64,000 bases of DNA, from positions 1,053,331 through 1,117,330 of the forward strand of contig OY969901.1 in the NCBI GenBank assembly GCA_963704465.1, written 5' to 3'. Positions 9,525-39,720 of the stretch are shown here, piece after piece. Numbering within the stretch: position 1 is the first letter of the stretch; the number at the start of each line of letters is the position of its first letter. The notes under the pieces were generated by a model. That model searched no databases and was not told the DNA's origin. It was given only the letters and a program-made list of their open reading frames with translations. The translations under genes were made by a program, and so were the position numbers. Source of the stretch: an uncultured bacterium (GTDB lineage Bacteria; Babelota; Babeliae; Babelales; Vermiphilaceae).

Positions 9525-10079
9525 TTAAATATCTTGATTAATGCTCGTTCTTAATGGCTGCGTAGAATTTAATGATTTCAGGGCTGCTCTATTTTTATTT
9601 TTATCAAAGTCGATCCATCCGTTTGCGCTTTTATCCAAACTCCCAATGCGATACACCGTATCATTTAGTTCATACAATGAGTAGTGCTTTTTGATACTTC
9701 CATATACCTCTGTATCAGAAGGTGCATAGGCAATACGATTCGTAGCATCAAATATTAACGTTGATTGCTTAAATAATGGCTCTTTTGCAATACGCTCATC
9801 TTCTGTATCGCGCTCGCCATCTTTTACCGGAAAACCGATATAATAACCAATAAAAGCATTACGGGGCAATCCAAGCTTTTTTTCTAGCGATGGATAAAAC
9901 AATTCATTCCATACAAGATATCCAATAATCGATGCGGAAACGCCTAACATACAGCCACCAACAATAAGCAAACCATCTCTCAACGAGCCATTAACGTTAT
10001 ACATGGCATGAGTTGTGTGAAAACCAAACATCACTGCAATAATAAGAAAAAACTTTTTTGCGCTATATAGAGAAAGCAT
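9525..10079 (-). CDS. Hypothetical membrane protein
   Basis: The track ORF begins at a TTG. I prefer the ATG at 10079 (MLSLYSAKKFFLIIAVMFGF...). A second hydrophobic segment is GLLIVGGCMLGVSASIIGYLVW. Confidence 0.5.
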   Translation of the reverse strand: MLSLYSAKKFFLIIAVMFGFHTTHAMYNVNGSLRDGLLIVGGCMLGVSASIIGYLVWNELFYPSLEKKLGLPRNAFIGYYIGFPVKDGERDTEDERIAKEPLFKQSTLIFDATNRIAYAPSDTEVYGSIKKHYSLYELNDTVYRIGSLDKSANGWIDFDKNKNRAALKSLNSTQPLRTSINQDI

Positions 10080-10212
10080 ATTAAACACCAAAAATTTAAA
10101 GAGGGTGGGCGATAAAATCGCCCCGTGTTTGATTATTGATTTACTTTTCACTTTGCAACTCAACCGCAATTAAAAACAAGCTGTGTTTCGGTAAAAATAC
10201 TATTTTTAGACC

Positions 10213-10569
10213 TTAAAAAGGCATTATTGCGCTGTCATTCTTTTCACGAAAAGCTAAATCAGCCATGTTAGTGGCATGAGCAATCATACTTTTTTTTACG
10301 TTTTCATCTAAATTTTCAAAATACTTAACATGACGCCGGCAAGAAATACCATGTTCGAAATCCGAAAGCAACAGTACAGGTTCACCTTTTTGCTGATATC
10401 CTTGTGCATAACAGGCTTTTAGCACATCTCTTGCCTTTGTGGTATCATCCACCGGTATGCTATATGTTTTATTTCCTATTATGGCGTACCTAACATGCAA
10501 TGTATTTAAATCCATACCGCATGCTGCAGTAGCTGCCATAATGCTTAGTGCACATAATTTCTTAAACAT
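10213..10569 (-). CDS. Small secreted protein with possible ubiquitin-like (beta-grasp) core; paralog of 11901..12284
   Basis: AAGGA SD-like sequence upstream. Leader MFKKLCALSIMAATAACGMD. The core LHVRYAIIGNKTYSIPVDDTTKARDVLKACYAQGY parallels ubiquitin [34 protein letters not shown] (my by-eye alignment). Confidence 0.6.
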   Translation of the reverse strand: MFKKLCALSIMAATAACGMDLNTLHVRYAIIGNKTYSIPVDDTTKARDVLKACYAQGYQQKGEPVLLLSDFEHGISCRRHVKYFENLDENVKKSMIAHATNMADLAFREKNDSAIMPF

Positions 10570-10716
10570 AATCTATCCTTACAAAAGTTGCGTACCATTG
10601 AGTACTGGTTTATCGGGAATGCATAATACTACTGCTCTTTCATTGCATATAAAACTTGTTGTGAGCACCTCCGAAATAAAAGGACCTATTTTTTTTGTTG
10701 AAAAAGTTCAATCCCA

Positions 10717-11814
10717 TTATTCATCAGAAGATATCGTTGAGGTATCTTCATCATCGTTTTCAGCAATAAAAGATGGCGCACGAACAGACCGCGAGACTCT
10801 TTTGTGCACATGTATCTCTGGACCAAAAATAGTAAATAATGCCTTTATACTGAATGGCAAAGTATCAAATACCTTTTTTTCGAAATGATCCATATCAACA
10901 ACTGCTTTGCGTTTTTGCACCGCATCTATCAAAAATTGTAATCTTTTTATCTGTAAAATATTGAAGTTATTATTCACAATTTTTGCATACACTTCTTTCG
11001 AATATGGCATTAATGCATATACCGAGGTATCTGTTTTAACTGCAATACCACATTTATATGGAGCAACACTCAGTACATTGATCGGTGTATCTTGGGTTCC
11101 TATTAAAAAATCCTTAATCTTTGATTCAACACCATCTTTGTCAATCAAAAAGAGAGAAAATCCTCCGCTATACTGCGCAATGATTGTGTTTGTTATCGGA
11201 CCGTTCACTATTGCGATAGGCATCTTTTTAGTTGAACCTATAGTGAGAATCTCCCCCGTTAAAAAATTCCATACACTTATTGTATTGTTTTGTTGTCCAA
11301 CAATAACCTGAGAATTATTAACAGCACTTTCCAAATACTGACATATTCTGATAGGGCTACCATATAATGAACTTTCTATTTTGGGTACCAGCATAGTATA
11401 GGGAAAGTCATGCTGACCCACGTTTCGAGCCTTCATCAATGCGCCATGTGCAAATCCTGCAAGAATTTCACCATCACCACATTCCACCGCGTAGATACAT
11501 TCCCCACAAAAACCGAACAATTCTCTATATACATTTGCTTTGTTTTCCGTTTTTTTATCAAAACAAATATTATTCGGTAGCGGAACCTGGCATATATCAT
11601 CAGACTTAGAATTAACCTCTAAAAGAGATGCCGAAAAGAAACCATGAACCTTATTTGGTTCAAGAAAATATTCAGCAATTACACCCTTTTTATTAAGATG
11701 CATTGGAAGAAGATCTGTTTGAAACATTATGAGTGATACGCACAGTACATAGAACGTATGTTGAATATTGCAAGTAACCATAGATGCATCTTTCTTTACA
11801 TTGATTTTTAGCAT
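10717..11814 (-). CDS. Hypothetical protein, probably beta-propeller-like, with acidic C-terminal tail
   Basis: 365-aa ORF with an uncertain start. It has repeated strand-like segments, its C-terminal helical segment is similar to 8319..9380, and the tail is ENDDEDTSTISSDE. Confidence 0.6.
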   Translation of the reverse strand: MLKINVKKDASMVTCNIQHTFYVLCVSLIMFQTDLLPMHLNKKGVIAEYFLEPNKVHGFFSASLLEVNSKSDDICQVPLPNNICFDKKTENKANVYRELFGFCGECIYAVECGDGEILAGFAHGALMKARNVGQHDFPYTMLVPKIESSLYGSPIRICQYLESAVNNSQVIVGQQNNTISVWNFLTGEILTIGSTKKMPIAIVNGPITNTIIAQYSGGFSLFLIDKDGVESKIKDFLIGTQDTPINVLSVAPYKCGIAVKTDTSVYALMPYSKEVYAKIVNNNFNILQIKRLQFLIDAVQKRKAVVDMDHFEKKVFDTLPFSIKALFTIFGPEIHVHKRVSRSVRAPSFIAENDDEDTSTISSDE

Positions 11815-11900
11815 GAAATGATACCGCTAAAACAATGTTTGTCAATTTCTTGCGCTCTTTTCATTACGCAACGTTCTACTTGTAGAGCCGATCACCGTGC

Positions 11901-12284
11901 TTAATCTTCAAAAAAAACCTTGGTTGGGTGTCTGTCTATCCACACAGACTGTGTATTATGTGTTTGCATAGCATCTTTTACGTAGATGCCCGTAAATTGT
12001 GTAGTTGAGTATCCCCAATAGCCAAACCGAAACCATCCATTATACAAAGGGTTCAGGGAATAAGATGTTTCATCTGATACTACGCCATCGTCTTTTAGAT
12101 AGTTCTTCACATCGTACACAGAGGTATCGTCCTTAACCGGCACCTTTGCATAGAGCGTGCCTTTTTTACTGTATACATGCAACACCGAAGCATTTTTAAC
12201 CCAATGAGGACGCTCTTTGTGTGTATCCATGCCACACAATCCTACAACCATGATGCTCATTACAAAAGCTATGATATGTTTCAT
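11901..12284 (-). CDS. Small secreted protein with possible ubiquitin-like (beta-grasp) core; paralog of 10213..10569
   Basis: AAGGAG SD upstream. Leader MKHIIAFVMSIMVVGLCGMD. Core LHVYSKKGTLYAKVPVKDDTSVYDVKNYLKDDGV. Confidence 0.6.
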   Translation of the reverse strand: MKHIIAFVMSIMVVGLCGMDTHKERPHWVKNASVLHVYSKKGTLYAKVPVKDDTSVYDVKNYLKDDGVVSDETSYSLNPLYNGWFRFGYWGYSTTQFTGIYVKDAMQTHNTQSVWIDRHPTKVFFED

Positions 12285-12307
12285 TACAGGACTCCTTTTT
12301 TATCCTA

Positions 12308-12736
12308 TTACTTCGTCAAATGAGCATGCGCACGTGCGAGTAAATGTTGCGCAGAATCAAACGTTACGCGTGAAATCGCTTCGTGAAATGGCAGCCATAC
12401 AAAGGCATCATGCTCATGGGATAGCGTAACTTTTTCTTGCTCAGTGGATGCAAGGAAGAATACTACCTGCTTTTGAATCAAACCACCACGATAATCACCA
12501 TATTTGTAGATTACTTTTTCATAAAAATCTTCATCAAGCTTTATCATATTAACGCCGGTTTCTTCATTAAGCTCACGCAATGCTGCTTGCAATTCTGTTT
12601 CATTCTGCTCAAGCTTACCCTTTGGCAAATCCCAATGACCGCCCGGATGGCGTATTAAAAGATATTTAAGCCCCTCTGGTGTATATCGATATACGATAAC
12701 CCCCGCTGAAAAAATCTGTTTTGTTACCATGTTCAA
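12308..12736 (-). CDS. Nudix hydrolase (Ap4A-hydrolase-like)
   Basis: Complete Nudix box GKLEQNETELQAALRELNEETGV (G-x5-E-x7-REUxEExGU). It starts 4 nt after the murJ stop. Confidence 0.85.
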   Translation of the reverse strand: MNMVTKQIFSAGVIVYRYTPEGLKYLLIRHPGGHWDLPKGKLEQNETELQAALRELNEETGVNMIKLDEDFYEKVIYKYGDYRGGLIQKQVVFFLASTEQEKVTLSHEHDAFVWLPFHEAISRVTFDSAQHLLARAHAHLTK

Positions 12737-12739
12737 ATC

Positions 12740-14305
12740 TCACTGCAAAAAATAAAGTTTTTGTTTCATCCACGATCGATAATACCACAAGAGGCCAAGA
12801 TATACACAGGCAAGTGTCCCAGCCCACAGCCAATAACCAAGGCTGTGCATAAGAAACCAACCAATAAAGCCGCTGGTATACTGCGCAATACCATATTCAC
12901 TGATGGTATACAGTATGAAAAATGGTATAAAGAAAAGAAACACTTGCATAGTATACGTCACAAAAAACTGTGCAAATACGGTTCCATAGACTCTTTTTTT
13001 ATAGCCATAATGAAGCACCAGCAATAACAACACCGTTTGTATCATCGTGCTTAACACCGTAGCAAACGCTAACCCCATTGCCTGCCACGATCCAATCAAA
13101 AGCCAATTCAGCGCAACGTTCATAACGGCCGTAAATGATGCAATTAAGGCCGGCACCCAGGTAACGTGTGATGCATAATACACATTCAAAATAACTTTAT
13201 TAAATGAAAAGAAGAAAAGCCCGATGCTAAATGCACGTAAAATTGCCGTTGCATCATGAACCTGCTCAATACTAAACTTACCACCCGATAAAAAAATAGT
13301 TTCAAACAATGGGCGTGCAAAAAAACATAACAGTAAAGTCACGGGTAAGGATATCCAAAAGACAAGCTTTGCCCCTTCGAGCAAATAGAAGGATAATCGC
13401 CGTGGCGCAACACGCGCTACACGAGACATGTGAGGTAAAAGCACCGTTGCAAATGCAACGGCAAACACACCGAGCGGAATACCAACCATGCGATTTGCTA
13501 AATACAATAGAGCGATTGAACCCGGCTTCAGGCATGATGCAAAACTCGTATCAATAAAAGAACTCAACTCCATTAATGAAATGCTCGGCAAGCACAGCAA
13601 AAAACGCCCCAACACCGTACGCACTGTTTTAAAATCAGCTTTGGTGCACCACGCGAAGCCAAACCCTGCATGCATATAGGCGAGTAAATGCAACACGCAT
13701 TGCAGTATGCCGCCAAGCAAAATACCCCAACACAATACGGAAACGGGTAGTTTAAAACCAAGGCAGAGAAACAAGGTACCAATGATCACCATATTTAAAA
13801 ATACGGGAGCGAGCGCAGGCACTAAAAATCTATTATCTGATTGCAAGGCGCTGGCAAACAGTGCACTCATGGAGACCGATAAAATAAACGGCATTACAAT
13901 TCGGAGCATAGAGGCAGCCTGCTGCACCGTTTCTGGATTAAACCCTGGTGCAATAAGCCGTATAATCGGCTCAGCCCATACAACCCCAACAACACAGAGC
14001 AACAATACGCATAATTCAAACACTATAAAAAAGAGCACCATCAAACCATTAATAGATGATTTACCCTGCTCATGCACACGGCTTGTCAGCACCGGAACGA
14101 CCGCAGCAGAAAGCGCACCTTCTGCAAACGCTTTGCGCAACGTATTGGGAATTTTATAGGCAGTCAAAAATGCATCGGCTAAAGAGGTTGCACCCAAATA
14201 TCTGATCGTTAATGCTTCGCGCATAATACCAAATAAACGGCTGAGCATAGTACTTGCACTGATAAGCGCTGTTTTTTTTAAAAGTTGTTTTTTTACCATA
14301 GGCAT
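12740..14305 (-). CDS. murJ: Lipid II flippase MurJ (MviN family)
   Basis: Polytopic membrane protein with the typical N-terminus ...SASTMLSRLFGIMREALTIRYLGATSLADAFLTAYKIPNTLRKAFAEGALSAAVVPVL. I trimmed the start to MPMVKK. Confidence 0.9.
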   Translation of the reverse strand: MPMVKKQLLKKTALISASTMLSRLFGIMREALTIRYLGATSLADAFLTAYKIPNTLRKAFAEGALSAAVVPVLTSRVHEQGKSSINGLMVLFFIVFELCVLLLCVVGVVWAEPIIRLIAPGFNPETVQQAASMLRIVMPFILSVSMSALFASALQSDNRFLVPALAPVFLNMVIIGTLFLCLGFKLPVSVLCWGILLGGILQCVLHLLAYMHAGFGFAWCTKADFKTVRTVLGRFLLCLPSISLMELSSFIDTSFASCLKPGSIALLYLANRMVGIPLGVFAVAFATVLLPHMSRVARVAPRRLSFYLLEGAKLVFWISLPVTLLLCFFARPLFETIFLSGGKFSIEQVHDATAILRAFSIGLFFFSFNKVILNVYYASHVTWVPALIASFTAVMNVALNWLLIGSWQAMGLAFATVLSTMIQTVLLLLVLHYGYKKRVYGTVFAQFFVTYTMQVFLFFIPFFILYTISEYGIAQYTSGFIGWFLMHSLGYWLWAGTLACVYLGLLWYYRSWMKQKLYFLQ

Positions 14306-14414
14306 ATTCTTTTTTTTGCGGGGATAAGAGGATGTAGTATACCATAGCATCAAAAAACTATCTTTATCTTTTTTATGTCCGTTACCATTAAAGAGAAAAA
14401 TAAAGGGGGTTTTT

Positions 14415-15722
14415 ATGAATCATGTAAGCGTATGTATCCAACTCTTTCTATCTTTTTATTTTTATTGCATTAATGGAAGCGATATGCCTCACCCCCATAT
14501 GTCACCTCGCTATGCCTTACTATCACCACGTGATAATACCATTAACACAATCGTACAAGAAGAATACATACCACTTTCATTTCTTACCCAGCTTATTGGT
14601 TATCGCAAAGCTCATACGTTATCAAAAATTTCTATTTCAGAAACAGCATATGAACTTTTTAAAAAATTATATCTGTGCCCCAAACAAATTCAAAATCATG
14701 TTCTCAATTTTATTGATTTTCGCAACAATACGACATTGCAAAAAATATATGCCCAGCAATATATAAAAAAAGAAATTGCTGTACAAGCTGATCCCCATTC
14801 TTTACCCATCGTTGCCATGCTTGATGATAACAATATTGTTGTCAGTAGTGTTTCCGAACCAATACAAATCTGGTCTTGCGATGAAAATAAAGTCATTTTT
14901 AAAAGCAACTACTTCTCAAAACGCCCCATGTGTTTTATACCACCATCACTCGTAGTAAGCGCAAGTCCCCGGGGAAATCTTAATATTGCAAAAAAAGAAA
15001 TAAATTCTAACACCTGGCTTGATCATAAAGTAATTCTCACCCAAGCACACTATGCTGCTCATGTTGAACTACTGTTCACACACAATGAATACGCTGTGGC
15101 TGGTTCTGTTTATGGCGATATTGATGTATATGATCTTGATAAAACTGCAATTATTATGCATAAAATGCATGGCCATGAAAACTCAATCTTTTGTGGCACC
15201 CAGCTATCACCGCATCTTTTTGCTACCGGTAGTAGCGATGAACATATACACGCATGGGATCTACGTAAAAAAGATACTGCGTTTTCTGTTTCTGACTTAG
15301 ATGCGGTGCCATTCAGCATAAAAATGTTCGATGATCACTCACTGCTTATCGGGTGTAGCCAGCAACCTGCTCTCAGAATGGTCGATCTCCGAAATACAGC
15401 AGCTTCCATTCCTATAAACATAGACGCATCTACCGTTTTTGACCTTGCAGTATTAGAAGATAAAACACTTGTTATATGCTCCAATGTAGTTGAGTTTTTT
15501 CATAAAAAATATGATTCTACCACCATTGAAAAGCTTCACGCTGTTCCAAACACCGAAAAAGTACTCAACATATCCTCATCGCACAATGGCTATATTGCCA
15601 TGGTAGACACCAAAAGCGCTATCTCTGTATTATTACCAATTACACAACCACTCTGCGCACGAGAACACTTAACCAGTGAAACTCTTATTGGAATTGCCCT
15701 TGATACAGAATCTACTGAATAG
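14415..15722 (+). CDS. WD40-repeat protein
   Basis: AAGGGGG SD-like sequence upstream. Canonical WD repeat HGHENSIFCGTQLSPHLFATGSSDEHIHAWDLR, plus further degenerate blades. Confidence 0.8.
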   Translation: MNHVSVCIQLFLSFYFYCINGSDMPHPHMSPRYALLSPRDNTINTIVQEEYIPLSFLTQLIGYRKAHTLSKISISETAYELFKKLYLCPKQIQNHVLNFIDFRNNTTLQKIYAQQYIKKEIAVQADPHSLPIVAMLDDNNIVVSSVSEPIQIWSCDENKVIFKSNYFSKRPMCFIPPSLVVSASPRGNLNIAKKEINSNTWLDHKVILTQAHYAAHVELLFTHNEYAVAGSVYGDIDVYDLDKTAIIMHKMHGHENSIFCGTQLSPHLFATGSSDEHIHAWDLRKKDTAFSVSDLDAVPFSIKMFDDHSLLIGCSQQPALRMVDLRNTAASIPINIDASTVFDLAVLEDKTLVICSNVVEFFHKKYDSTTIEKLHAVPNTEKVLNISSSHNGYIAMVDTKSAISVLLPITQPLCAREHLTSETLIGIALDTESTE

Positions 15723-16585: not shown

Positions 16586-18955
16586 ATGAAGACAGCACTT
16601 GATCTGATTTCAAACGGATCTTTGCCAAAAGTATTACCTGTTATTCCAACAGTTGATGTTGTGGTGTTTCCAAATATCATTGTACCACTCTTGGTGCTCG
16701 ACGAAAAAATTATCAACGGTATCACCCAGTCACTTGATCAAAGCAAGATGGCTATTTTGCTTGCTGCAAAAAACACACTGGATACCAATGGCGCTATCGG
16801 CACTGACGATCTGTATAATGTAGGTACCGTCGCTTCTATCATGCGTATTATAAAAATACCTGAAGGAGGACTTAAGATTTTAGTGCAAGGGGTCTGTAAA
16901 GCACGGGCCACGAGCATTAATACCCACAACGAAACATTACTGGCCGACGTTGAACCGATGGAGCAACAACAGGCAAATCCACTTGAGCTCCACGACGTTA
17001 TAAACTCCATTAAATCGATCGCTGATTCAATGGCTGCAAACGGTACATCATTTAGTCCAGATTTTCATATTATACTCGGCAAAATGCAGGAACCAGATAA
17101 AATCGCTGATTTTATCCTTTCACACCTTACCCTTGATGTACACGATGCTCAAGCATTACTTGAAATAGCATCTCAAAAAGAGTTCTTAGAACGGCTCGCA
17201 GGCCACCTGCGCCATGAAATTGATACATCGGAAATTCAAGAACGAATTCGTACAAGCGCCCGTGAATCAATGAACGAAGCACAAAAAGAATATTATCTTC
17301 GTGAGCAACTCAAAGCAATTAAAAAAGAGCTTGGTGATGATGACACAGAAGAAATAGAGCAAATGCGCATCAAGATTAAAACACTACCGGTTGCAGAAAG
17401 CACCAAAAAAGAGATTGTTCGCCAGATTAATCGCCTTGAAAAAACATCACCCGAATCATTAGAAGCAACGGTCACCCGCAACTATTTGGAATGGGTCTTC
17501 AGCTTACCATGGGGCGTCTATTCGCCAGAAACAATTGATCTGAATGTTGCACAAGAAATTCTCGATCAAGATCATTATGGCCTTGAGAAAATTAAAGACC
17601 GCATTTTAGACTTTATCTCAATCCGCAAACTAAAAAAAGATGGCTATGCACCAATCATTTGTTTTGTTGGACCACCTGGCACGGGTAAAACATCACTCGG
17701 CAAATCGATCGCGCGCAGCTTAGGGCGCACGTATGTTCGCATATCGCTCGGCGGTGTGAAAGATGAAGCAGAAATACGTGGCCATCGCCGCACCTACGTT
17801 GGTGCAATGCCCGGCAGATTTATACAAGCAATTCGCAAAGCAGGAACCTGTAATCCACTGATTGTAATTGATGAGCTTGATAAAATTGGATCAGATTTTC
17901 GCGGTGATCCTTCAGCAGCAATGCTTGAGGTGCTTGATCCACAACAAAATCACACCTTCTACGATAACTACATGGGCATTCCGTTCGATCTTTCACAGGT
18001 TATTTTTATTGCAACCGCAAATGATTTGGGCACTATTTCTGGCCCATTGCGGGATCGTATGGAAGTAATTGAAGTAAACGGCTACACACTTGAAGAAAAA
18101 TGCGCAATCGCAAGCAAATACCTGATACCAAAAGCAATTGCGGACACTGGCCTGCAAGATGATAAACGCATTCAGTTTAGCGATGAGCTCATTGAAGATC
18201 TTATTGCAAACTATACCCGCGAATCAGGGGTGCGTCAGCTTGATAGATTGGTACATACCGTTTGTGCAAAAATTGCACGCGCAATTGTGGAAACAGGCTC
18301 ATGCCCCGCTATTTCACGTGAAAATATAGAATCGATTATCGGCCCACGTGAGTTTATTCAAGAAACCACTGATCATACCAACCAGATTGGCATTTCAAAT
18401 GGCCTTGCATGGACATCCTGCGGTGGAGAACTGCTGAAAATTGAAGCGGTGCTCATGCCCGGCAAAGGCAAGCTTATGTTGACTGGCCAACTTGGTGACA
18501 TTATGAAAGAATCGGCACAAGCAGCACTCAGTTACGCCCGTGCTCATGCAAAAGATTTTAACATCAACCCAACCATATTCACTGCCACCGATTTGCATAT
18601 TCATATCCCTGCAGGGGCAGTGCCAAAAGACGGTCCATCGGCAGGTATCACACTGCTGACTGCAATACTTTCTGCACTCACCAATCGCCCAATCAATGCA
18701 CGCTATGCAATGACCGGCGAGCTCAACCTACGCGGCGAAGTGCTTCCTATTGGTGGCGTAAAAGAGAAAATACTTGCTGCAAAACGCAATAAAATGACCC
18801 ACATTATTCTGCCAATCAAGAATAAAAAAGATATCATGGGGCTTGAAGATGCACTTAGTGGCATCGATCTCGTGTTTGTAAACCATGCAGATGAAGTGCT
18901 TGATAGAGTGTTGTTGCCAAATGGAGCAAAAAAGTTGAGTAAGAGGATAGCATAA
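16586..18955 (+). CDS. lon: ATP-dependent Lon protease
   Basis: 789 aa. LON N-domain, AAA+ Walker A GPPGTGKTS, Walker B VIDELDK, and protease Ser motif PKDGPSAGITLLTAILSAL. Confidence 0.97.
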   Translation: MKTALDLISNGSLPKVLPVIPTVDVVVFPNIIVPLLVLDEKIINGITQSLDQSKMAILLAAKNTLDTNGAIGTDDLYNVGTVASIMRIIKIPEGGLKILVQGVCKARATSINTHNETLLADVEPMEQQQANPLELHDVINSIKSIADSMAANGTSFSPDFHIILGKMQEPDKIADFILSHLTLDVHDAQALLEIASQKEFLERLAGHLRHEIDTSEIQERIRTSARESMNEAQKEYYLREQLKAIKKELGDDDTEEIEQMRIKIKTLPVAESTKKEIVRQINRLEKTSPESLEATVTRNYLEWVFSLPWGVYSPETIDLNVAQEILDQDHYGLEKIKDRILDFISIRKLKKDGYAPIICFVGPPGTGKTSLGKSIARSLGRTYVRISLGGVKDEAEIRGHRRTYVGAMPGRFIQAIRKAGTCNPLIVIDELDKIGSDFRGDPSAAMLEVLDPQQNHTFYDNYMGIPFDLSQVIFIATANDLGTISGPLRDRMEVIEVNGYTLEEKCAIASKYLIPKAIADTGLQDDKRIQFSDELIEDLIANYTRESGVRQLDRLVHTVCAKIARAIVETGSCPAISRENIESIIGPREFIQETTDHTNQIGISNGLAWTSCGGELLKIEAVLMPGKGKLMLTGQLGDIMKESAQAALSYARAHAKDFNINPTIFTATDLHIHIPAGAVPKDGPSAGITLLTAILSALTNRPINARYAMTGELNLRGEVLPIGGVKEKILAAKRNKMTHIILPIKNKKDIMGLEDALSGIDLVFVNHADEVLDRVLLPNGAKKLSKRIA

Positions 18956-36736: not shown

Positions 36737-37201
36737 ATGAAGCTTTTATCTCTTACGGCATTAACTGCTTGTTTACTGTACACCACAATAAACTATGCAA
36801 GCGACATAGATAATGAACTTAATGCACCCACGTGTCCTCAATCAGCGTGTAAACCTCGGTATGTGGTATCACCTATTATAGGTACTACAATTGGGGGTAT
36901 TATTGGTAGTATAGCATATCTATCCACTGCACATGTAATCAAACCAAGCTGGACAGTATTTGTACCAGGAAAAGATTATGGCCACACAATGTGTTGGCCA
37001 AACGGCACCATAAACTACGATCCACAATGCCAAATATTTATGGATGAAAATAATAGATTAATAAAAGAATATATGGGTATTCTTATACCAGTTGGTGCAG
37101 TCCTCGCACCACTCACAACCTATCTCCACCGTAAAATATACAACTGGTACATACATCATGATGATGTTGAAAAGCAAAATATACTAATGCAAAAAATGTA
37201 A
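36737..37201 (+). CDS. Short secreted/membrane-module protein; its module is paralogous to the C-terminus of 37220..38374
   Basis: Leader MKLLSLTALTACLLYTTINYA. PIIGTTIGGIIGSIAYL...IKEYMGILIPVGAVLAPLTTYLHRKIYNW parallels APLIGAGVGAIIGGIVYA...VQKWMAIFVPLGAVLPPLTYRLSKTVYNW. Confidence 0.65.
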   Translation: MKLLSLTALTACLLYTTINYASDIDNELNAPTCPQSACKPRYVVSPIIGTTIGGIIGSIAYLSTAHVIKPSWTVFVPGKDYGHTMCWPNGTINYDPQCQIFMDENNRLIKEYMGILIPVGAVLAPLTTYLHRKIYNWYIHHDDVEKQNILMQKM

Positions 37202-37219
37202 CCCAAAAAAGCGAGCCCT

Positions 37220-38374
37220 ATGAAGCATACTATTTTCGCCCTTGCATGCATGGTTTCTATTGCATGTATTCCGGGCCATGCCGCTGATGCATACATACAA
37301 CTTGATACACACTCCGATGATGAGCATTCAGATGAAAAGCGCCCCACGATCACCATCAAAACACTCTATGATGGTGGCGTGAGAACCGCAAACCAGACCT
37401 TGAATCTTGCAGACCGAAAGCTCACCAGCACCCATGATTTACCTAAATTCCGCACTAAATTGCAGCTTGGTACCTTAACATTACTTAATACAAGCGATAA
37501 TCATCTGCAGTCTGATGATATTGGCACGGTGCTGCGCCATGCAGCTGCTTTGAAAACGCTCATTGCAACCGGGAACAAGGTTAAATCAGTAGAGCTACTT
37601 CCTGAGCATGATAATCTCGAAACGTTGTTTTTGGACAATAATAAAATCGGCGAATTCAAGGTAGCGCCGTTTTGCCAAAAATTTCCTAAATTACGGCAGC
37701 TGAACTTAGAGGATAATCCACTTCAATCAGATACTATCACGAGCATCACTGGCACTTACGCCGCTATGGAAGAGCTCTGGTTTGATCATCATGCGGCAAC
37801 ACCATCGGTTGCGATACGCTGCATCAAAGCATTTCCTAACCTCACCTGCGAGCTCGGGGCTGGAAGCCGCGCAGTGCAAAAATATTACTCCACAACCAAA
37901 CAACAATGGGATGATTGCAGTGATTGCACTGATTTTTGCACGCGATGCGAATGTTGTTCAGTATATATAGCAGCACCGCTTATAGGTGCCGGAGTCGGTG
38001 CTATAATCGGCGGCATTGTATATGCATGCACGATGCAAAAAGAACCATCTGATTGGATGTCTGATTTCAAATGCTACAAATATTATGCTGGTGAGCATAT
38101 GGGGGAGTGCGAACAAATACTACGTGAAAATCAAAAACTCGTACAAAAATGGATGGCTATCTTTGTACCCCTTGGCGCCGTATTACCACCACTCACCTAT
38201 CGCCTGAGTAAAACAGTCTATAACTGGTGCCGCACCAAGCCGCACGAACGCTATAAAACAGTCCACACACGCGAGATTCATGCTGAACCAACATTCCTAG
38301 ATCTTATTGATAACCTTGTTGAACCAGCACCGAATCAAGAAGATGAAGTTGATGGGCAAGAAGATGAAGTATAA
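37220..38374 (+). CDS. Leucine-rich-repeat protein with leader, C-terminal two-TM module and acidic QEDE tail
   Basis: Leader MKHTIFALACMVSIACIPGHA/AD. LRRs include LTLLNTSDNHLQSDDI, LKTLIATGNKVKSV, LETLFLDNNKIGEF and LRQLNLEDNPLQSD. Tail NQEDEVDGQEDEV. Confidence 0.8.
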   Translation: MKHTIFALACMVSIACIPGHAADAYIQLDTHSDDEHSDEKRPTITIKTLYDGGVRTANQTLNLADRKLTSTHDLPKFRTKLQLGTLTLLNTSDNHLQSDDIGTVLRHAAALKTLIATGNKVKSVELLPEHDNLETLFLDNNKIGEFKVAPFCQKFPKLRQLNLEDNPLQSDTITSITGTYAAMEELWFDHHAATPSVAIRCIKAFPNLTCELGAGSRAVQKYYSTTKQQWDDCSDCTDFCTRCECCSVYIAAPLIGAGVGAIIGGIVYACTMQKEPSDWMSDFKCYKYYAGEHMGECEQILRENQKLVQKWMAIFVPLGAVLPPLTYRLSKTVYNWCRTKPHERYKTVHTREIHAEPTFLDLIDNLVEPAPNQEDEVDGQEDEV

Positions 38375-38386
38375 AAAGGAACATTC

Positions 38387-38698
38387 ATGAAGCATATTGT
38401 TTTTGCTCTCGTATGCATGATTTCTATTGCATGCATTCCAAGCCGCGCAGCTGATCAACCATTTACTAAACGCCACACAAAAGCACATACCTTTTCTGAT
38501 AGTGATTATCTAAGAATCACCGCAAATAGCATCTATTGGGGTTTTGGTTTGGGTGCGATGTATGGAGAAAATCAGTGTATGGAACAAAGGTGCCCTTACG
38601 CTGTCTATTGTGCTCTAATCGGTGCAATATCAGCAGCTATAGCAACACCAGTATGCATGAAATTATATAGCAAAATAGTCGGTTACTATAAAGGATAA
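38387..38698 (+). CDS. Short secreted/membrane-module protein; its module is paralogous to the C-terminus of 38701..39720
   Basis: Leader MKHIVFALVCMISIACIPSRA/AD, nearly the same as that of 37220. AISAAIATPVCMKLYSKIVGYY parallels LSSWIATPVCIKLYSKIGGYY. Confidence 0.6.
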   Translation: MKHIVFALVCMISIACIPSRAADQPFTKRHTKAHTFSDSDYLRITANSIYWGFGLGAMYGENQCMEQRCPYAVYCALIGAISAAIATPVCMKLYSKIVGYYKG

Positions 38699-38700
38699 AG

Positions 38701-39720
38701 TTGGTGAAGGAGAACAGAAAGTATAGTTACATACTCATGATAAGCATGGCATTTTATTGCTCTGCTCAATCATCAGAAAAACGGCACCAAACTAATCAGT
38801 GGCTGGGTCACAAATCGGTTGAACAGTTGGTCAAGCAAGGCATTCGGCCTCAAAACAATGAACTCAACTGCCTGCACCAAAAACTAACCACGCTTACTGA
38901 TTTGCCAAAGTTCATACACACATGGCAACCATACAATCTCACAACAATGAACGTAAGCCATAATCATCTGCAAGATGAAAGCCTGATTACCGTTCTTAAA
39001 TGTGCACACAATCTTCAACACTTAGATTTTTCCCATAATGAAGTACATCAGCTCTGTACTATACCACCCCACGAACAGTTACAAAAACTAGTGCTTAATG
39101 ATAACCACATAAAAAAATTGTGCGTTAAAAAGGTGTTTGGTAGCTTAAAAAATCTTGTCTGGTGTTTGCTCAATAACAATCTTTTGAGCGATGACGATAT
39201 TACCGACAAGCAAGGATATTATCCAACTATTGAAACGATCTGGTTTGATCATACCGCGTTAAAAGAAAGCACCATACAAAGCTTCATAAAAATATTTCCC
39301 AACCTTTATTGCGAGCTTATGCCTGGTAACAATGCGATACAAAAACAGTATACGCAAAAAAAAGCACACTATGATATCTATATATCTAGCGACGATTACA
39401 TAAAATATACTGTTTACAGTTCTCTATTATGTGCAGGTTTAAGTGGATTTTATGGATTTACCCAATGCACACATTATTACGATCCCATTATTGCCTACGT
39501 AGGCTTGTCTGCATGTATGGGTATGCTATCTTCATGGATAGCAACACCAGTATGTATCAAGCTGTATAGCAAGATAGGTGGTTACTATATTACTGATCCT
39601 GCTTATCGTTATTACACAGAAAAAACACGCAACATACGGCCATATCCCTCCCTTTTAGGACATAGACATTCATATGAAGATGTGGAAGATCATGATCCCG
39701 GACAAGAAGACGAAGAATGA
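38701..39720 (+). CDS. Leucine-rich-repeat protein with C-terminal membrane module and acidic QEDE tail
   Basis: LRRs include LTTMNVSHNHLQDESL, LQHLDFSHNEVHQL, LQKLVLNDNHIKKL and LVWCLLNNNLLSDDDI. WFDHTALKESTIQSFIKIFPNLYCEL parallels WFDHHAATPSVAIRCIKAFPNLTCEL in 37220. Tail GQEDEE. The start codon is uncertain (TTG or GTG). Confidence 0.75.
   Translation: MVKENRKYSYILMISMAFYCSAQSSEKRHQTNQWLGHKSVEQLVKQGIRPQNNELNCLHQKLTTLTDLPKFIHTWQPYNLTTMNVSHNHLQDESLITVLKCAHNLQHLDFSHNEVHQLCTIPPHEQLQKLVLNDNHIKKLCVKKVFGSLKNLVWCLLNNNLLSDDDITDKQGYYPTIETIWFDHTALKESTIQSFIKIFPNLYCELMPGNNAIQKQYTQKKAHYDIYISSDDYIKYTVYSSLLCAGLSGFYGFTQCTHYYDPIIAYVGLSACMGMLSSWIATPVCIKLYSKIGGYYITDPAYRYYTEKTRNIRPYPSLLGHRHSYEDVEDHDPGQEDEE

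Follow-up and report, generated by a model that had tools for sequence, protein, structure and literature searches.

Dependentiae (TM6) are common intracellular parasites of protists and mostly uncultured; roughly half of their proteins have a signal peptide, the majority of these proteins are unannotated, and we know of no effector-translocation system in the phylum. In the cultured member Chromulinavorax, signal peptides are present on 44% of the coding sequences, with ORFans and ankyrin proteins enriched there (PMC6561590). Elsewhere among bacteria, the small secreted ubiquitin-fold protein BfUbb of Bacteroides fragilis is 63% identical to ubiquitin (PMC6194340) and has a periplasmic peptidyl-prolyl isomerase of competing Bacteroides as its target (PMC11467351). 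Small beta-grasp domains in general, such as those of ThiS/MoaD, YukD, SLBB and others, are widespread in bacteria (PMC1949818, PMC1779556), and because of this wide prokaryotic distribution a beta-grasp alone does not imply ubiquitin mimicry. Here, we analyzed two small genes, P1 and P2, which flank a third gene (the middle gene) in a stretch of 64,000 nucleotides of contig OY969901.1 (hereafter, the window). An initial annotation had read P1 and P2 as paralogous ubiquitin mimics exported together with a propeller protein. Judged from its sequence, the window comes from a reduced-genome member of the Dependentiae (Babeliales): for its Lon protease (16586..18955), the closest genome match is a Candidatus Babeliales metagenome-assembled genome with 75% identity, while all others reach at most 50%. 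The contig of that genome stops 1 kb upstream of Lon and, therefore, says nothing on synteny. The G+C content of the window is ~36–46%, and many of its proteins have N-terminal hydrophobic leaders or eukaryote-like domains (Prok-RING_4/RING, ankyrin, F-box-like, and WD40).

P1 and P2 were borne out as minus-strand open reading frames (ORFs) on either side of the middle gene (Table 1), each with a Shine-Dalgarno sequence (SD) 6–8 nt from its ATG. In a word-indexed search of 5.8 billion proteins, P1 and P2 each matched only themselves. When P1 was searched exhaustively with HMMER against 1.84 billion representatives, a single relative was returned, P0005, which has 131 amino acids (aa), is 45% identical to P1 (E 5e-16), and is encoded on a 2-kb contig (L082). 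P2 has a syntenic ortholog (1288..1671; 72% aa identity in a gap-free alignment), not called as a gene, on a 19-kb Logan contig (L081) that carries murJ, nudix, this ortholog, the middle gene, a gene for an outer membrane protein (OMP)-like protein, mreB, and ksgA. The SDs are kept in the homologs, and the locus of P0005 also has the P1-type TAAGGATA.ATT-ATG arrangement. Metagenome scans with the middle gene and P2 as queries as well as one viral-contig scan returned nothing, and no further paralogs were found in the window, L081, L082, or L001.

P1 and P2 are likely distant paralogs, a relationship that had been proposed before and that we find moderately supported by sequence comparison. Pairwise, the proteins match in BLASTP with an E-value of 0.035, mainly across the leader; an all-versus-all BLASTP within the window gave no P1–P2 link, and Smith-Waterman alignment of the mature parts gave a z-score of ~3.5. 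The support comes from profiles. With the leaders removed, hhalign aligned P1 and P0005 with P2 and its L081 ortholog over 78 collinear columns at P 2.4e-4, and the score of 27.9 was reached in 0 of 100 column-shuffled controls, among which the maximum was 14.6. Moreover, the best matches were reciprocal among the 636 ORFs of all loci, in that P2 was the best non-self match of the hidden Markov model (HMM) of the P1 family (E 0.022) and P0005 the best non-self match of the P2-family HMM (E 0.058). With the P2-family HMM alone, P1 was not ranked first, and the link emerged once P0005 had been added; in a tblastn search of the whole window with P0005, P2 was second-best (E 0.011). The four sequences align nearly without gaps and have in common the M-D after the leader, the motifs L.V.Y..G and PV.D.T...DV, and a C-terminal (V/M)K..M..H.T. 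At the DNA level, the two genes have no similarity beyond that of codon-shuffled controls; therefore, the duplication is old rather than recent.

Both proteins begin with a leader that runs into Met-Asp. The leaders are MFKKLCALSIMAATAACGMD in P1, MKHIIAFVMSIMVVGLCGMD in P2, and MKKLFFTMFFAVGLSGMD in an ankyrin-repeat protein (ATG at 3705), and the common ending [SC]GMD, which had been pointed out for these three proteins, held up in a six-frame scan of the window, in which hydrophobic leaders ending in GMD were found only in P1, P2, and the ankyrin protein. The tripeptide GMD occurs five times in the 19,503 residues of a non-overlapping ORF set, compared to ~1.3 times expected from composition; because three of the five lie at leader ends, their placement is non-random, even if P1 and P2 are taken as one family. 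In the five related leaders, i.e. including those of P0005 (which ends in AAYSMD) and the L081 ortholog of P2, the residues around the predicted cut read ACG/MD, LCG/MD, LCC/MD, LSG/MD, and AYS/MD, so that the constant part is Met-Asp after a small residue. By inspection, each has a K or KK n-region followed by 12–13 hydrophobic residues, with G, G, C, G, and S at position -1 and A, L, L, L, and A at position -3; in P1, the n-region is KK, the hydrophobic core has 12 residues, and A and G occupy -3 and -1. All five agree with the n-h-c organization of a signal peptide with small residues at -1/-3. Because the -3/-1 rule fits a cut before Met in 5/5 leaders, the lipobox pattern does not match, and Cys is missing in two of the five, we infer Sec-type leaders with cleavage by signal peptidase I (SPase I) predicted ahead of Met-Asp.

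We also considered that P1 and P2 could be lipoproteins anchored via Cys17, in which case C-G-M-D would be a lipobox variant and the proteins would be membrane-tethered rather than soluble and secreted. Cys17 is present in both proteins and lies directly past the hydrophobic core. However, neither VGLC of P2, nor IELC of the L081 ortholog, nor TAAC of P1 matches the SPase II pattern [LVI][ASTVI][GAS]C, there is no Cys at this position in P0005 (AAYS-MD) or in the ankyrin leader (GLSG-MD), and a canonical lipobox of this genome, in the ORF starting at 63708, reads L-S-G-C. We therefore rejected the canonical lipoprotein reading and regard the variant as improbable.

We note that the ends of the ankyrin and P2 leaders, AVGLSGMD and VVGLCGMD, are equal at six of seven positions while the mature proteins are unrelated. 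The underlying codons differ (GGG CTC TCT GGT and GGA TTG TGT GGC, respectively), which argues against a recent DNA exchange, and the likeness may stem from a constraint on processing or sorting that both proteins share. As a separate observation, Met directly follows the predicted cleavage site in many signal-peptide ORFs in and around the variable island described below (FA/MPFDD, NA/MQAP, HA/MYNV, and three times G/MD; leaders at window positions 1379, 8319, ~10079 within ORF 9525..10169, 3705, 10569, and 12284). The pattern suggests either that this Met was formerly the start and the leaders came from 5' extension of the ORFs, or that alternative internal starts are used.

To compare rates of change, the ratio of nonsynonymous to synonymous substitutions (dN/dS) was calculated by the Nei-Gojobori method between the window and L081, with dS of ~0.7–1.0 for all genes. 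Because dN/dS is 0.20 for P2 but 0.03–0.07 for its neighbors (Table 1), P2 is a real coding gene under purifying selection that evolves several-fold faster than the genes around it; for the P2 leader, the value is 0.34. Between P1 and P0005, dN is 0.47 and dS 1.12 (dN/dS ~0.42). The L081 ortholog of P2 contains an in-frame TGA (1411..1413) where the window has a GGC Gly codon (12161..12159), while the rest is in frame. Genome-wide UGA=Gly recoding in L081 was rejected as unlikely, as translation table 11 leaves the remaining L081 genes intact; the TGA stems either from a nonsense mutation that is very recent or from an error in the assembly. Together with the exceedingly few relatives, this codon would fit the alternative that one or both of P1 and P2 are decaying or non-functional ORFs. 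The dN/dS values for both genes, the SDs and leaders kept in the homologs, and the ORFs themselves, which are uninterrupted in the window with an identical P2 in a second sequencing run, speak against decay, and we consider it extremely improbable. P1 and P2 are near-orphan, fast-evolving accessory genes of this Babeliales lineage.

What the mature domains might be was approached by comparison with known folds. The by-eye similarity to the first half of ubiquitin, from which the initial annotation had started, is at chance on the pairwise level: Smith-Waterman z-scores against ubiquitin were 0.17 and 0.46 for the two proteins, i.e. no better than shuffled sequences, and none of the four family members matched a Pfam ubiquitin family at E<=10. 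The best-scoring Pfam families were instead Ras-association (RA) domains. RASSF8-10_RA (PF21712) matched mature P0005 with an E-value of 0.0042 and 17.5 bits (residues 8-91, aligned to positions 3-74 of the 79-position profile) and P1 with an E-value of 0.12 and 12.8 bits, with no match for P2; ASPP2-like_RA (PF21801) matched with an E-value of 0.0082 and RA_2 with 0.12. In ten reversed or shuffled controls, the best Pfam E-value was 0.077, and no RA or ubiquitin-like (Ubl) family appeared. A search of the PDB with the full profile found the N-terminal domain of ASPP2 (2uwq) at an E-value of 0.087, and with a profile of the N-terminal half of the four sequences 2uwq was the top match (E 0.075). 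Against a hand-assembled alignment of nine Ubl sequences, hhalign gave P 8.5e-4 for the full profile and P 5.4e-4 (probability 30%) for the N-terminal half, a score that 0 of 100 column shuffles reached.

Structural models were generated with AlphaFold2 from single sequences. The P1 model (predicted local distance difference test score, pLDDT, 56) has a strand-strand-helix-strand arrangement followed by a long helix, and the P2 model (pLDDT 46) begins with strand-strand-helix-strand. In a Foldseek search with the P2 model, ~32 of the top 50 PDB chains were the Ras-binding domain (RBD) of RAF, ubiquitin, SUMO2, NEDD8, ISG15, or other Ubl proteins, with E-values of at least 0.14 and template modeling (TM) scores of 0.3–0.55. 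All RA/Ubl signals fall on the same N-terminal segment and keep the register drawn in the initial annotation. On the strength of these sequence and model comparisons, the chances that the mature domain is a beta-grasp appear evenly balanced; if it is one, the sub-threshold evidence points to RA/RBD-type domains rather than ubiquitin modifiers as its nearest relatives. Thus, of the initial proposal the beta-grasp/Ubl fold is plausible, whereas an identity as Ubl mimics was not borne out.

Our favored reading, to which we give about an even chance as a whole, is that of a lineage-restricted, accessory family of secreted proteins that are cut by SPase I and carry an RA/RBD-like beta-grasp binding module. 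Specifically, P1 and P2 would be two diverged members of a small Babeliales-restricted family that are translated from good SD/ATG signals. Each would have a Sec-type signal peptide, as read from the sequence, which SPase I would remove just ahead of the conserved Met-Asp according to the -3/-1 rule, freeing a mature protein of ~100 aa into the periplasm and thence probably to the host-facing compartment, as proposed for Dependentiae signal-peptide proteins. The mature domain would probably fold as beta-beta-alpha-beta-beta-alpha-beta, closer to RA/RBD than to ubiquitin, and could target the host as a protein-binding module that cannot be conjugated. In this arrangement, P2 would be attached to a murJ–nudix unit, and P1 sits at the margin of a variable island of effector type.

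Several points weigh against this reading. Every fold signal is sub-threshold; the best RA score of 17.5 bits lies below the gathering score of the RA family (27 bits) and, because the scores are under this threshold, the proteins do not qualify as members of the family. When scored singly against the Ubl profile, the four members reached 11.9–15.8, which places them at about the 88th–99th percentile of a null distribution for which real 55-aa segments were drawn from this genome (95th percentile 13.6, maximum 16.1). Both AlphaFold2 models are of low confidence, and their C-terminal halves disagree, with a helix in P1 and strands in P2; Foldseek with the P1 model matched nothing, the best E-value being 0.75. 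In the PDB, matches that are not beta-grasps were equally good (serpin48, E 0.016; RsgI, E 0.014). Finally, P2 is interrupted by a stop codon in its one known relative, the role toward the host is conjecture on our part, and the position of P2 in an apparent murJ–nudix operon suits an envelope role equally well.

The last point leads to an alternative in which P1 and P2 have an unrelated alpha/beta fold and a periplasmic or envelope function, the RA/Ubl signals are noise, P2 is a dispensable companion of murJ–nudix, and P1 is a diverged copy of it. Directly upstream of P2 and on the same strand lie nudix (Pfam NUDIX, E 1.6e-17) and murJ (Pfam MurJ on the identical Logan locus). Because only 23 bp separate the nudix stop from the P2 start, as in L081, where the gene order murJ–nudix–P2 is the same, P2 is probably co-transcribed with murJ–nudix. 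Besides this arrangement, the sub-threshold fold signals with equally scoring serpin and RsgI, the poor AlphaFold2 models, and the near lack of relatives in protein-database searches are in line with an envelope function. On the other hand, matches recur to three related RA families, with clean shuffled controls, an RA/Ubl domain tops the PDB list of the N-terminal profile, nonsynonymous change is far faster than in the envelope and housekeeping neighbors, and the nonsense codon in L081 is more in keeping with an accessory than with a core envelope role. We regard this alternative as possible, though rather unlikely.

The neighborhood bears on the proposal that P1 and P2 are ubiquitin or Ubl mimics that share their export with a propeller protein and work together with the RING and F-box proteins encoded nearby. 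The middle gene has a single homolog, P0004, on L081 (59% identity). Neither protein has a Pfam match at E<=10; in the PDB, the middle gene has no match better than an E-value of 0.26, the best propeller-type match being Utp12 (E 0.66), and hhalign against the WD40 and propeller-like proteins of the window gave P 0.3-0.4 (WD40, 0.31). We also looked for a kinship to the propeller-like and WD40 ORFs 8319..9380 and 14415..15722 and detected none. The propeller label is, therefore, unsupported by Pfam, PDB, and hhalign. A sigma-70-like promoter abuts the ATG of the middle gene, and its -35 and -10 elements are kept in L081 (~1805..1841; TTGACA...TATTAT); because it has its own conserved predicted promoter, the middle gene is a transcription unit separate from P2. 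We note that this promoter ends a few bases ahead of the annotated ATG, which implies that the mRNA is leaderless or that translation truly starts downstream, at Met12.

The window contains a variable island of ~9.5 kb with P1 at its edge, whereas the syntenic site of L081 lacks this island. There, as seen by blastn and tblastn against the window, the ortholog of the OMP-like gene directly adjoins the middle gene, with 2943..3288 of L081 as the stretch compared with the island, and the order is nudix, P2 (with the stop), middle gene, OMP-like gene, and mreB, with P1 absent. On L082, a SIR2-like gene lies downstream of the P1 homolog, and 47 bp of upstream sequence are present on the contig. 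A conserved module of P2, middle gene, and P1 is, therefore, not supported. Nor does joint export with a propeller fare better, given that P1 is missing in L081, P2 follows nudix, and a separate promoter precedes the middle gene, for which no propeller signal was obtained.

In favor of ubiquitin mimicry, RING and F-box-like genes (Prok-RING_4, E 6.6e-8; F-box-like, E 4.9e-6) share the island with P1 at a distance of 4–9 kb, the beta2-alpha1 register obtained from hhalign and from the ASPP2 match is the one drawn in the initial annotation, and ubiquitin, NEDD8, SUMO2, and ISG15 are among the Foldseek matches of the P2 model. Against it, pairwise similarity to ubiquitin is at chance with no Pfam ubiquitin family, RA domains score best, and none of the island ORFs scanned has a Pfam match to E1, E2, or deubiquitinase (DUB) families. 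As had been stated before for P1 and P2, none of the proteins ends in Gly-Gly (P1, ...AIMPF; P2, ...VFFED; P0005, ...PNTLV). Also, the middle gene could not be shown to encode a propeller and is parted from P2 by its promoter, while P1 is missing at the L081 site and its homolog on L082 has a SIR2-like neighbor. Based on the missing E1/E2/DUB matches, the missing Gly-Gly, and the chance-level similarity, the idea of a fuller ubiquitin-system mimicry set is not supported, and we consider mimicry of ubiquitin or Ubl proteins very unlikely.

Returning to the RA/RBD-like reading, its furthest extension would be that P1, P2, and their relatives are the first bacterial stand-alone RA/RBD-like domains, which were acquired or evolved in Babeliales, are exported by Sec, and bind host Ras/Rap-family GTPases or another partner that recognizes beta-grasps during intracellular growth in a protist. 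We regard this extension as doubtful.

Table 1 Features of the P1–P2 locus. Positions refer to the window; dN/dS is for the window versus L081.
Feature	Position	Strand	Description	dN/dS
P1	10213..10569	-	118-aa ORF; 18-19 aa Sec-type leader, Met-Asp, ~100-aa mature domain (candidate RA/Ubl-like beta-grasp)	
P1 signal peptide	10516..10569	-	Residues 1-18, MFKKLCALSIMAATAACG; by inspection, predicted SPase I cut before Met19-Asp20	
P1 SD	10576..10580	-	AAGGA; read from sequence	
P2	11901..12284	-	127-aa ORF; 18-aa leader and 109-aa mature part; likely distant paralog of P1	0.20
P2 signal peptide	12231..12284	-	Residues 1-18, MKHIIAFVMSIMVVGLCG; by inspection	
P2 SD	12292..12297	-	AAGGAG; read from sequence; kept in L081	
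Middle gene	10717..11814	-	365 aa; N-terminal hydrophobic segment, acidic tail; lineage-specific, fast-evolving	0.31
Middle-gene promoter	11818..11845	-	Sigma-70-like, TTGACA-16-TATCAT; 11/12 in consensus scan; abuts middle-gene ATG	
murJ and nudix	12308..14353	-	Directly upstream of P2, same strand	
murJ	12740..14353	-		0.07
nudix	12308..12736	-		0.03
OMP-like gene	3..1121			0.03
Variable island	1200..10716	.	~9.5 kb, P1 at edge; missing at syntenic site in L081	
RING	1379..2869		Island ORF	
Ankyrin-repeat protein	2908..3705	-	Island ORF; Pfam Ank_2, E 1.3e-9; leader MKKLFFTMFFAVGLSGMD	
ORFans	3841..5181		Island ORFs	
F-box	5197..6069		Island ORF	
Alpha/beta hydrolase	6187..7437	-	Island ORF	
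ORF	7175..7987	+	Island ORF	
ORF	8319..9380		Island ORF	
ORF	9525..10169		Island ORF	

Further observations concern the surroundings. On L082, the P1 homolog is followed by a signal-peptide SIR2-like gene (491..1483, minus strand) and then a gene fragment (1709..2092, plus strand); the fragment is weakly similar to the F-box protein of the window (5455..5661) in tblastn with an E-value of 0.012, which hints at common island content in another Babeliales-like organism. In the island, the hydrolase ORF overlaps the plus-strand ORF 7175..7987 by ~260 nt, and its annotated TTG start is probably too far upstream. Outside the island, the plus strand at 36737..39720 encodes tandem paralogous secreted proteins with the common leader MKH(T/I)(I/V)FAL.CM.SIACIP (37220..38374 and 38387..38698). 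Here, 38387..38698 and 38701..39720 look like one paralog broken by a stop codon, and 36737..37201 is related to the middle of 37220..38374.

Among known systems, the N-terminal RA domains of RASSF7-10 and ASPP1/2 (2uwq) score best for the P1 branch and are of similar size (~80–100 aa). They differ in being intracellular eukaryotic signaling modules inside larger proteins, whereas in P1 and P2 the domain would make up a stand-alone bacterial protein with a Sec leader. 2uwq and RA domains belong to the ubiquitin superfold. With ubiquitin, NEDD8, and SUMO themselves, P1 and P2 have in common the beta1-beta2-alpha1 pattern and a helix that has a (D/S)-T N-cap and is followed by a Gly, but they are longer (100–109 aa when mature) and are without Gly-Gly, E1/E2 context, or significant similarity. 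Pfam scans gave no sequence link from P1 and P2 to the prokaryotic ThiS/MoaD, YukD, and SLBB domains, and the E1-like and JAB genes of the ThiS/MoaD operon context are absent. In functional terms, the nearest precedent for bacteria secreting a ubiquitin-fold protein is BfUbb, which is also small and is binding or toxic rather than a modifier (PMC5705921, PMC6194340, PMC11467351); while BfUbb was clearly acquired horizontally, P1 and P2 have no detectable identity to ubiquitin and occur in an obligate intracellular parasite.

P1 and P2 fit the signal-peptide ORFans of Dependentiae such as Chromulinavorax and Babela, in which reduced genomes and ankyrin proteins go alongside (PMC6561590, PMC4378268). 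That ORFan class is defined by a leader and missing annotation, and in the literature that we searched no small RA/Ubl-like family is described. If the RA-like reading is wrong, P1 and P2 are one more lineage-specific secreted ORFan family, as is ordinary for the phylum. The variable island with its RING, ankyrin, and F-box genes, delimited by the comparison with L081, is useful for studying the gain and loss of effectors. We suggest that P1 and P2 form a new lineage-specific secreted family within this known gene class, possibly with an RA/Ubl fold. If so, they would add a new eukaryote-like module to the ankyrin, F-box, and RING repertoire of Dependentiae, and assigning even one ORFan family a fold and a candidate class of targets would open the way these bacteria manipulate their hosts to testing.

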